Virus record (IMG/VR): IMGVR_UViG_2667527595_000023
DNA: 9,470 nt
Source: a virus
Lineage: Monodnaviria; Loebvirae; Hofneiviricota; Faserviricetes; Tubulavirales
Strand: one strand, 5' to 3'
Shown here piece after piece: positions 5,019 to 7,260 of the stretch. Made by a program: the position numbers and the translations under genes. A model generated the notes under the pieces. The model was not told the origin of the DNA and ran no database searches. It saw only the letters and a program-made list of their open reading frames with translations. The first letter of the stretch is position 1, and the number at the start of each line of letters is the position of its first letter.

Positions 5019-5267
5019 ATGCAAATTGTTTACTACGATTACTTTCCTGGGTTTGGTTTTTACTTGACTGCTCCTGTTTACTGTACAGCCCGTGTTGATG
5101 GTCTTTGGTTAAAATGTGACTCCTTTGATGAGCTGATCAATTACTGCCTTCGTTTTATTGGGCCAGAGTTCGTTCTTGTTTCTCTTTCAGTTCCTTCCGG
5201 ATCGTGGGTTGTCTATCTGGATATGGTTGAGGCTTCCGATATGGTTTCGGGAGAGGAGTATGACTGA
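5019..5267 (+). CDS. Hypothetical protein (82 aa), translationally coupled to the replication initiator
   Basis: GAGG ribosome-binding site 4 nt before ATG 5019. Stop TGA 5265-5267 overlaps the rep ATG 5260 (ATGACTGA). Confidence 0.5.
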
Positions 5268-7260
5268 ATCAACCATCCTCACAGCGTATAACGCCATCGA
5301 CGCGGCATCCGTTGCCCTTAGTCGTCCCTGCCTGACGCTGACCGAACGCGAGCATTTTCGGACTGAGCGCGATGTTGCCACCCGCAACCTTTCCACGCTT
5401 TCCCGCCAGTATCGTGATGAGGTCGGGACCTTATCTGCACAGCTCGCATTGCCGCGTAACACGCAGGTTGACCGTGTGATTTACGGAATTAACTGCACGG
5501 ATTTATCTCTCGCTGACAGGGGTAAGGCTGCCGGACTGGTTTCACAGTTTGGCTCGTTTTCGTTCACCGTGGCACACGCTTTCTGCCGTCTTGTTTATCA
5601 GCTCGGTGTGAAAAATGCGCTGATGGCGCTTGAGTCCGCGCACCGTTTTGCTTTCTTCAATCAGGACGGAGACCCTTATGAATTCTCGCTTTTCTGCACT
5701 GATGAACAGCTTGCTGAGGTGGCTGATTCGGTTGTTCGTGACTGCCTTGTTTCCCGGGCCATTTATAGTGATGTACCAGAGCATCACCTTCTCAATGTGA
5801 TGGCCTATTTTCGGGCCATCTCCGGCTTTGATTTCGCACCCGTTTATGCCACTTATCATGAGCGTTACGGCGATGAGGGATTGCTTAAGCGTCTGACTGA
5901 TTTGGCTTTTGTCACCCGTTTCCTGCGGGTTGTCCGTGACCAGCGGGTTAATGAGGTCTGTCGCATGCTCGGCATACTGAACCGCAACGCGCCTTATATT
6001 TCTGACTGGCATCGTGACCTGTTTGCTGTCCGCAGTAAACGCGTGAAAAAGTATCTCCGGTCCTCCGGTGTCTTTGATGCGTTTAATGAGCTGGTCTGTA
6101 CGCTGGAAGATGCGCATAACGCCTCTGTTTCGAATCCGAAAAACCGGATTGCTGAACTCTGCGTTCGTGGAAAGGCCGTCTGTGAACTGTCCGAAGATAT
6201 GGGGCTGTCCGGTTACTTCATCGTGCTCACCACGCCGTCACGTTTTCACCCGACGACCAGTTTTAAGGTTGCCGGAAAATGGCATTCTCGTCCGAATAAA
6301 AAATGGTGGGAAGCAGGTTGCCCGACCGTTAAGGATTCGCACGCCTGGCTGAATACCGTCTGGCGTCGGGTCTGCCGCAGACTGGATAAAGCCGGTATTC
6401 AGATACCCGGTCTGCGCACGGTCGAGCCTCATGCTGACGGTACAACGCACTGGAATTTCCTGATTTACTGCAATCCCCATGAGAGCGCAACGGTGCTGGC
6501 CATTTTCCGTGAAGAGGCCATGCGCGATGAGCCGGATGAAAAGGGGGCGAAAGAGCACCGTATTCGTATTGAGGCTATTGACCCTGAAAAGGGTGATGGT
6601 TTCCGTTACATCGTGAAGTACATCACCAAAATGGCGGGTGATGTCAGTGCGGATGGTATTACCGCCCTGAATGACCGTTATTCTGCCCGTTCATTCTGTG
6701 ATGCCGTCAGCCGTGCCGCCTGCTGGCAGAAAGCAACGCGCCTTCGCCTGTTCCAGTTCTTTGGCGTTCCGTCCGTCACGGCTTACCGCCAGATGCGTAC
6801 TTTTCGTTCACCGCTTGAAGCACATCATATCAATATGCAGCAGTTCACGCCGCAGCAGGTCGCCGAACTGGAGGCCATCCGCATGGCCTGTGATGCAGGC
6901 GATTTCCGGACCTATATCCTGCTGAACGGCGGTTTCTTCTGTTCTGAACGTCTGCTTCGTCCTTTTTACGTTCAGCCGCAGGAAGGTGGTAAACCCCGTT
7001 TTAACCGTTACGGTGAACCCTGCGCACCGGTGATTTCCGGTTTCATGTTTGGCCCTGTTCCGGTCATAACCCGTTTTATGGGTTGTGTTGTCCGCCGTAT
7101 GACCCCCTCAGAAAAAATCCGCGCAGAGGAAGCCAGAAGCGGCAGCAGCTATGAATCTGTGTTTATTTCGTCGGCTTCACGACACCGCACGACGCGCTCC
7201 CGCGCGGCGGGTGGGGGCGGCGAAGCCGACCCTTGGACTTGTGACAATAACTGTCCCTGA
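5260..7260 (+). CDS. Rolling-circle replication initiator, HUH-superfamily, phiX174 gpA / P2 gpA-like (667 aa from ATG 5260)
   Basis: Motifs [12 protein letters not shown] (6217-6252), [13 protein letters not shown] (6430-6468) and the two-tyrosine motif RYIVKYITK (6604-6630), similar to the phiX174 A protein YxxKYxxK. GAGAGGAG precedes the ATG. The six-frame ORF extends upstream to 5158, but the internal ATG has the ribosome-binding site. Confidence 0.8.

Follow-up and report, generated by a model that had tools for sequence, protein, structure and literature searches.

Introduction

The A protein of bacteriophage phiX174 is a two-tyrosine initiator whose origin of replication lies inside its own gene, with the rep_origin annotated at 4306, in the N-terminal third of gene A. 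Bacteriophage P2, a double-stranded DNA tailed phage, has an initiator of the same Pfam family (Phage_GPA, PF05840), the 761-amino-acid (aa) protein gpA, and its GenBank record (AF063097) carries a 'nick site at ori' at 29892, within gene A. P2-like phages of Vibrio keep the P2 origin inside rep (PMC3986222), and a survey lists PF05840 among the replication proteins of microviruses and inoviruses (PMC7000223). Filamentous phages with this type of initiator are already in the databases, namely fs2 (orf716) and VFJ (orf698) of Vibrio, both Saetivirus, and phages of Vibrio cyclitrophicus, where the protein is annotated as resembling P2 replication gene A; for fs2 and VFJ we found no published mapping of the origin. 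The initiators gpII of the Ff phages (M13, f1 and fd) and RstA of CTXphi have the same role, nicking the plus strand of the filamentous-phage replicative form, but they belong to the Phage_CRI/Rep_trans family, and the Ff origin is intergenic rather than at the 3' end of the initiator gene. Here we describe the replication initiator gene, rep, of a filamentous (Tubulavirales) prophage of Escherichia coli contained in IMG/VR record IMGVR_UViG_2667527595_000023, a stretch of 9,470 nucleotides (nt) that was analysed whole and is called the window below.

Our analyses indicate, with a probability of roughly 0.8, that rep encodes the rolling-circle initiator of this prophage, a member of the two-tyrosine family of P2 gpA and phiX174 gpA, and that its origin lies at 7214-7254. 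In its replication module, a common dif-site filamentous prophage of E. coli is thereby grouped with P2 and phiX174 rather than with M13 or CTXphi. The finding also shows one rep-origin module common to tailed and filamentous phages, and offers a clear case in which the DNA element on which a protein acts dictates the tail of that protein. The prediction of the plus-strand origin at the level of the base could find use in phagemids, minimal replicons and prophage annotation. No current view is overturned by these findings; rep is correctly named by annotation pipelines and is an ordinary member of a known family, without surprise for a specialist.

The rep gene encodes a P2-type initiator

A single open reading frame (ORF) of 666 aa forms rep, with an ATG at 5260, a Shine-Dalgarno sequence (GAGGAG, 5253-5258) 5' of it and a stop codon at 7258-7260 (Table 1). 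A first-pass annotation, made by a model from the letters alone, had placed a large replication-initiator ORF at exactly these coordinates, and RefSeq, which names the product 'replication endonuclease', gives identical boundaries in an E. coli prophage of 99% identity. Matches to rep occur in 40 of 5,426 complete E. coli genomes, in all cases on the chromosome and at up to five places per genome, with an identity of 97.8-99% in the best 15 of the 40 matching genomes; the cluster of rep sequences at 90% identity has 2,063 members, all from E. coli.

The protein scores 166.8 bits with Phage_GPA (cut-off 31.4; E=8.4e-49, aa 207-457) and matches PHROG_91, 'nicking at origin of replication', over aa 120-666 (E=1.9e-128), and both matches are far beyond chance. 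The same Pfam model recognises P2 A, phiX174 A (E=4.8e-62) and VFJ orf698 (E=5.5e-109). A sub-threshold match to REP_ORF2-G2P (PF23343) covers the identical nuclease core, and an NCBIfam scan of the protein returned no match. For a filamentous phage the default expectation is an initiator of the Ff gpII or CTX RstA type, and beyond that expectation we found no support for one here. A Pfam scan at E<=1 matched the protein to neither Rep_trans (PF02486) nor Phage_CRI (PF05144), which refutes both identities; only Phage_GPA passes the Pfam threshold, PHROG_91 matches strongly, and the two-tyrosine and EPHxDGxxH motifs align with those of P2 gpA. The Ff-type alternative has practically no chance of being correct. 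This agrees with the first-pass annotation, which had called the protein phiX174-A/P2-A-type and had named assignment to Rep_trans by profile searches as the result that would speak against it.

Of the deposited phage genomes, that of VFJ, a filamentous phage of Vibrio, matches best (29.5% identity over aa 43-606), and P2-like tailed phages come next at ~28-32%; the initiators of P2, K139/Kappa, phiE12-2 and Mannheimia phage 587AP1, all of the same Pfam family, show 27-30% identity over aa 153-558. Profile comparison (hhalign) of the family with phiX174 A alone found nothing (probability 0.7%), so that the link to phiX174 rests on the common Pfam model together with similarity of fold. The relationship to P2 is the close, direct one, and that to phiX174 holds at the level of the family.

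Three rolling-circle motifs, the same three as in P2 gpA, span 48-69% of the protein length. In alignments with 48 homologues, F320, T324, P326 and S327 of motif 1 are invariant or nearly so, while E389, H391, D393 and H397 of motif 2 and Y450, Y454 and K457 of motif 3 are invariant; motif 3 is aligned to YIAKYISK of P2 gpA, with the tyrosines equally spaced. Motif 2 departs in one place from the HUH type named by the first-pass annotation: the canonical last His of HUH is Asn399 (H397-W-N399). Motif 2 of P2 and most relatives is EPHHDGTPHWH, so that P2 has HWH where the window protein has HWN, and EPHH where it has EPHA. Across 81 loci the HUH position reads HWH in 62, HWN in 9, HHH in 7 and HNH in 1, with no match to the regular expression in 2; HWN is found in the window and in 8 of the 80 other loci (Salmonella, Xenorhabdus, Psychromonadaceae). 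Gene A of phiX174 has an internal A* start, whereas in the homologue alignments no internal methionine that might start an A*- or pX-like product is fixed or close to fixed.

An AlphaFold2 model built from 48 homologues is confident, with a mean predicted local distance difference test score (pLDDT) of 88.7 and a predicted template modelling score of 0.85. It comprises an all-alpha N-terminal domain, a mixed alpha/beta core that holds all three motifs, a further domain reaching to ~aa 628, and a tail of predicted disorder. Some 320 residues do lie ahead of the first motif, which starts at aa 320, as the first-pass annotation had noted, but its view that they have no assignment was too broad: only residues 1 to ~120 are uncovered and clade-specific (the first ~120-150 residues are unrelated to those of P2), and from ~120 (PHROG_91) or 207 (Pfam) onwards the protein is held in common with P2 gpA and Vibrio inovirus replication proteins. 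Foldseek searches of the PDB gave weak matches led by the HUH nucleases adeno-associated virus Rep and parvovirus NS1. The closest predicted viral structures are the replication protein of Vibrio phage V86 (E=1.7e-19) and then microvirus replication initiators. A PDB sequence search with the family profile returned no match, that is, no solved structure of this family.

A predicted origin in the last codons of rep

The candidate origin core, CTTGGACTTGTGACAATAACTGT (23 nt), corresponds to the last nine codons of rep, and the gene ends 6 nt after it. It has one mismatch to the family consensus and is present in a single copy in the window. In P2, CCTCGGAGTCCTGT occurs exactly once in gene A. 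The window motif aligns to P2 CTCGGAGTCCTGTCAATAACTGT, and the fourth base of that block is the annotated nick site, the first G of the GG in CTCGGAG; the block encodes APRSPVNNC, which is paired with the last residues of the window protein in the protein alignment. P2 and the window phage both carry the 23-nt block in sense orientation, within or close to the 3' part of rep and with a GC-rich hairpin ahead of it, although gpA runs on for 430 nt past the motif. In VFJ, CTTGGACTCGTGTCACTAACTGT straddles the rep stop codon after a hairpin of 19 base pairs (bp). By homology with P2, the nick would most likely fall at G7235, plus or minus 1 nt, within CTTGG.

Of 80 genomic loci encoding rep relatives of 27-46% identity, 78 were searched for the block. 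In 77 of these 78 it is present once per locus on the rep-sense strand, with no more than 5 mismatches (usually 0-2), at -550 to +201 nt counted from the stop codon of rep. The motif is also found in P2, K139/Kappa, phiE12-2 and Mannheimia 587AP1, which are P2-like tailed phages, in VFJ and in a Vibrio cyclitrophicus inovirus. It occurs in all three reading frames, being read as PWTCVNNC, LDLCQ-stop, LDL-stop or LGLV-stop, and some loci, those of Vibrio and Xenorhabdus among them, have it 2-201 nt past the stop codon. Each position in a stretch of ~25 nt (cCTTGGAcTtgTGTcAATAACTGTac) carries 1-2 bits of information, against nearly none on either flank. Two E. coli relatives of 59-65% aa identity retain all 20 of the 20 bases of CTTGGACTTGTGACAATAAC, and third-codon-position identity reaches 0.8-0.9 in the final 12-13 codons (starting at codons 654-655) against 0.41-0.46 over the whole gene. 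The one exception among the scanned loci is a decayed prophage of Xenorhabdus hominickii (L006, ~9040-9080) in which the block is cut in half (CCTTGGACTCGGACTCGG...) and runs into a secretin fragment; the endpoint of this deletion lies at the predicted nick region.

Selection on the C-terminal peptide PWTCxNNC could produce a conserved block as well, and PWTC(D/V)NNC does recur in many homologues, with the P2 variant PRSPVNNC at the same aligned position. Yet identical DNA is translated differently from locus to locus, or lies past the stop codon, and the tail that would carry the peptide is predicted to be disordered; we find a peptide origin of the block scarcely credible. Because the block can be found in any of the three frames, and in some loci past the stop codon, it is the DNA, not the peptide, that is conserved. 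On this comparative sequence evidence the block is a DNA element and a homologue of the P2 nick region.

The first-pass annotation had suggested that the plus-strand origin may lie within the initiator coding sequence, and the position of the P2-homologous block in rep bears this out for the window, with the amendment that it sits at the extreme 3' end and that in relatives it straddles or passes the stop codon. The predicted origin is found on the rep-sense strand, within or adjacent to the initiator gene. The large intergenic region (4314-5260) would be the place to look if the phage followed Ff, IKe and CTX-type phages, whose plus-strand origin is intergenic; its ~950 nt contain divergent small ORFs and a dif-like site, and the 3' motif would then be a non-functional inherited relic. 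However, the motif has no copy in that region, even at 6 mismatches, and it moves with rep and not with the intergenic DNA. A relic, moreover, would not hold ~2 bits per position over Enterobacterales, Vibrionales, Alteromonadales, Cellvibrionales and Betaproteobacteria between uninformative flanks, nor keep its synonymous positions. An intergenic origin is very unlikely, and the 3' end of rep remains our preferred location.

A predicted hairpin adjoining the motif

Directly before the motif the window can form a GC-rich hairpin of 7 base pairs with a GAA loop; it contains GCGAAGC, a DNA mini-hairpin known for its unusual stability. The 54 nt upstream of the motif fold at -20.3 kcal/mol as DNA. 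A second predicted stem-loop at 7183-7213, directly 5' of the origin hairpin, could provide a binding site or belong to a minus-strand origin, and the two stem-loops together form the most stable 45-nt stretch in the rep ORF of the window.

Hairpins of differing sequence occupy the same place in P2 (GCGGC-ATC-GCCGC), K139, phiE12-2, the Mannheimia phage and many other loci. Two Marinomonas loci have GGACGGC/GCCGTCC and GGATGGC/GCCATCC respectively, a Photobacterium locus has GGGAGC/GCTCCC and a Cellvibrio locus GGTGGCGC/GCGCCACC, and Vibrio phages have long perfect stems ahead of the motif. The evidence for the hairpin consists of folding statistics taken sequence by sequence. Uninterrupted stems of at least 6 bp ending at most 12 nt from the motif occur in 20% of the 79 loci examined and at 2.6% of random positions; the upstream 45 nt are more stable than shuffled copies (median z = -1.76) and fall in the lowest 5% of windows of their own rep ORF in 59% of the 79 loci. 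We regard the hairpin as likely.

Weighing the prediction

Several points weigh against the reading of rep and its origin given above. The nick position is carried over from a one-base annotation in the P2 GenBank record, and we found no published experiment on this phage or on filamentous phages of its initiator type in the part of the literature accessible to us, where text matches to the origin sequence were confined to primers of no relevance. The motif also resembles the 30-nt phiX174 origin (CAACTTGATATTAATAAC, cut as CAACTTG/ATATTAATAAC), with which it shares ACTTG and AATAAC, although the spacer between them is 5 nt in phiX174 and 4 nt in the window. This resemblance suggests a cut after ACTTG instead of in the earlier CTTGG, which would place the nick between 7241 and 7242, 5-6 nt downstream of the P2-based site; we prefer the P2-based position because P2 is the nearer relative. 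The loci used for the hairpin statistics are interrelated, so that these overstate independence, and RNAalifold, run on a MAFFT alignment of 22 origin flanks, found no pairs and no consensus hairpin, a result that we attribute to loops of 3 and 4 nt putting the stems out of register in the alignment. Finally, with Asn in place of the second HUH histidine the metal site is non-canonical, and activity of the protein is assumed.

Taken further, the missing canonical histidine could mean that rep is catalytically dead and that chromosomal replication alone copies the prophage, as a defective passenger; the adsorption-protein gene seems interrupted, and the 3' end of the window is chromosomal. Against this, HWN is fixed over a clade at 37-65% identity (E. 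coli, Salmonella, Xenorhabdus, Providencia, Psychromonadaceae) with intact ORFs and all other catalytic residues invariant, which argues for purifying selection, and the prophage is found in tandem arrays as well as at several places in one genome. Other HUH enzymes tolerate Asn or Gln for a metal-ligand His, as with HUQ in circoviruses. Loss of activity is therefore unlikely.

Proposed mechanism and reach of the module

By homology with P2 and phiX174, the rep protein would recognise two adjoining elements, the hairpin at 7214-7232 and the 23-nt motif at 7232-7254, both on the strand that bears every phage gene. It would cut within CTTGG at about G7235, Tyr450 or Tyr454 becoming covalently joined to the 5' end, and a host polymerase and a host helicase would extend the 3'-OH round the circle. 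The second tyrosine would then cut the regenerated origin and the displaced strand would be re-ligated into a single-stranded circle. This circle may be converted to the double-stranded replicative form, or may be coated by the product of the ORF at 7291-7716 and exported via the Zot-like protein and the secretin. Homology is likewise the basis on which we assign the nicked base, the parts played by the two tyrosines, what the hairpin does and the host factors. Since the origin lies in the last rep codons, the predicted disordered C-terminal tail is for the most part a by-product of this DNA element: the codons of the tail also make up the origin hairpins and the nick motif, and in the protein alignment the tail is unconserved save for the peptide encoded by the motif.

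The closest filamentous counterparts, fs2 and VFJ, have the gene order rep, single-stranded DNA-binding protein, coat genes, pI and pIV, as here, but they are only ~29% identical, have HNH at the HUH position and infect different hosts. Beyond these phages, a Zot-like gene is present within 7 kb in 19 of the 78 loci with a rep relative. Sampled loci among those that lack it (L014, L047, L057, L063 and most of L030-L083) have this type of rep and the origin block beside tyrosine integrases and such genes as those for a RES-domain toxin, an SMC/AAA protein, Imm30, a cytosine methylase and a PAPS-reductase-like protein, and look like small integrative islands rather than filamentous or P2-like phages.

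On a broader reading, the hairpin and the ~25-nt block would form a portable, frame-independent origin cassette that accompanies Phage_GPA rep genes across at least three kinds of mobile element, namely P2-like tailed phages, filamentous phages and small islands with an integrase and defence genes; the C-terminal tail would in many of them, this one included, be translated origin, and the enterobacterial filamentous-phage clade would use a non-canonical His-His-Asn metal site. We put the odds of this broader proposal at about even. Within the limited literature accessible to us we found no description of the origin block in filamentous phages, of its frame-independent placement or of the HWN variant. 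Papers on YpfPhi, CUS-1 and UPphi do not state the family of gene II, and the UPphi primers have no match in the window.

Prophage context and integration

Features of rep and of its neighbourhood are collected in Table 1. A Zot-like ATPase, a secretin, a small coat gene and a gene for a glycine/serine-rich adsorption protein all lie on the rep strand of the window, a filamentous-phage (Tubulavirales) context. In E. coli strain 100416 tandem copies of the element, 8,739 bp apart and joined by way of a dif-like site, directly adjoin hipBA. Because of the Zot-like, secretin and coat genes and these tandem copies beside hipBA, the element is an inovirus-type E. coli prophage integrated at the dif region. 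A megablast search of the whole window against deposited phage genomes gave no match, and an Rfam scan of the window found no family.

Table 1. Positions of rep, its domains and motifs, the predicted origin and neighbouring genes in the window.
Feature	Position	Strand	Evidence
rep coding sequence, rolling-circle replication initiator, Phage_GPA (P2 gpA) family	5260..7260	+	ORF, Shine-Dalgarno, Pfam, PHROG, RefSeq
N-terminal all-alpha domain, aa 1-268, ~12 helices	5260..6063	+	AlphaFold2 model
Rolling-circle motif 1, FIVLTTPS, aa 320-327	6217..6240	+	alignments
Metal-binding motif 2, EPHxDGxxH type, aa 389-399	6424..6456	+	alignments
Motif 3, YIVKYITK (YxxKYxxK), aa 450-457; two predicted catalytic tyrosines, Y450 and Y454, plus K457	6607..6630	+	regular expression, alignments
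C-terminal tail, predicted disordered, aa 629-666	7144..7257	+	pLDDT <50
GC-rich hairpin adjoining the nick motif, GGG.CGGC-GAA-GCCG.CCC	7214..7232	+	DNA fold
Predicted plus-strand origin core/nick motif, CTTGGACTTGTGACAATAACTGT	7232..7254	+	homology to P2 nick region
Zot-like morphogenesis gene	1116-2318	+	Zot PF05707, E=2.5e-9
Secretin gene	3105-4313	+	Secretin PF00263, E=9.1e-25
141-aa ORF, next gene after rep	7291-7716	+	ORF list
Coat-like ORF, 86 aa	8031-8291	+	ORF list

Several features of the window stand apart from rep. An 82-aa plus-strand ORF (5019-5267), for which Pfam gives no match and the RefSeq relative no annotation, overlaps the first 8 nt of rep. Between the Zot-like and secretin genes, at 2332-3066, are tandem repeats with a period of 339 bp, 93-100% identical and without an Rfam match, the copy number of which probably differs from that in strain 100416 (unit 8,739 bp). 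Positions 49-251 are exactly repeated at 9095-9297, which gives a phage unit of 9,046 bp. The last 173 nt (9298-9470) match, on the minus strand and at 99.4% identity, a type VI secretion gene of the chromosome (ImcF/TssM-related). This non-phage DNA is joined within the Gly/Ser repeat of the adsorption-protein gene, where the adsorption ORF is broken, and the junction could be an assembly chimera or a genuine rearrangement.

A dif-like attachment site, located only through comparison of the tandem copies, lies at 4367-4399 (AGTGCGCATAA-TGTGACACGCG-TTATGTTGAAA). Its XerC arm agrees with E. coli dif at 10 of 11 bases and its XerD-like arm at 9 of 11, and the spacing is 11 nt against the usual 6; a search of the window for the full-length E. 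coli dif found none at up to 9 mismatches. At the left junction beside hipA in strain 100416, the chromosomal XerC arm is joined to the phage spacer, a pairing that suggests exchange on the XerC side. In E. coli filamentous prophages with a rep 59-65% identical to that of the window, a transposase gene of the IS110 family (DEDD) lies directly 5' of rep (L086, 4919-5872; L088, 455-1417), and the L086 and L087 elements are found near ymdA/clsC and not at dif. The IS110-type genes beside rep and the ymdA/clsC location thus point to integration modules being swapped around one replication module.

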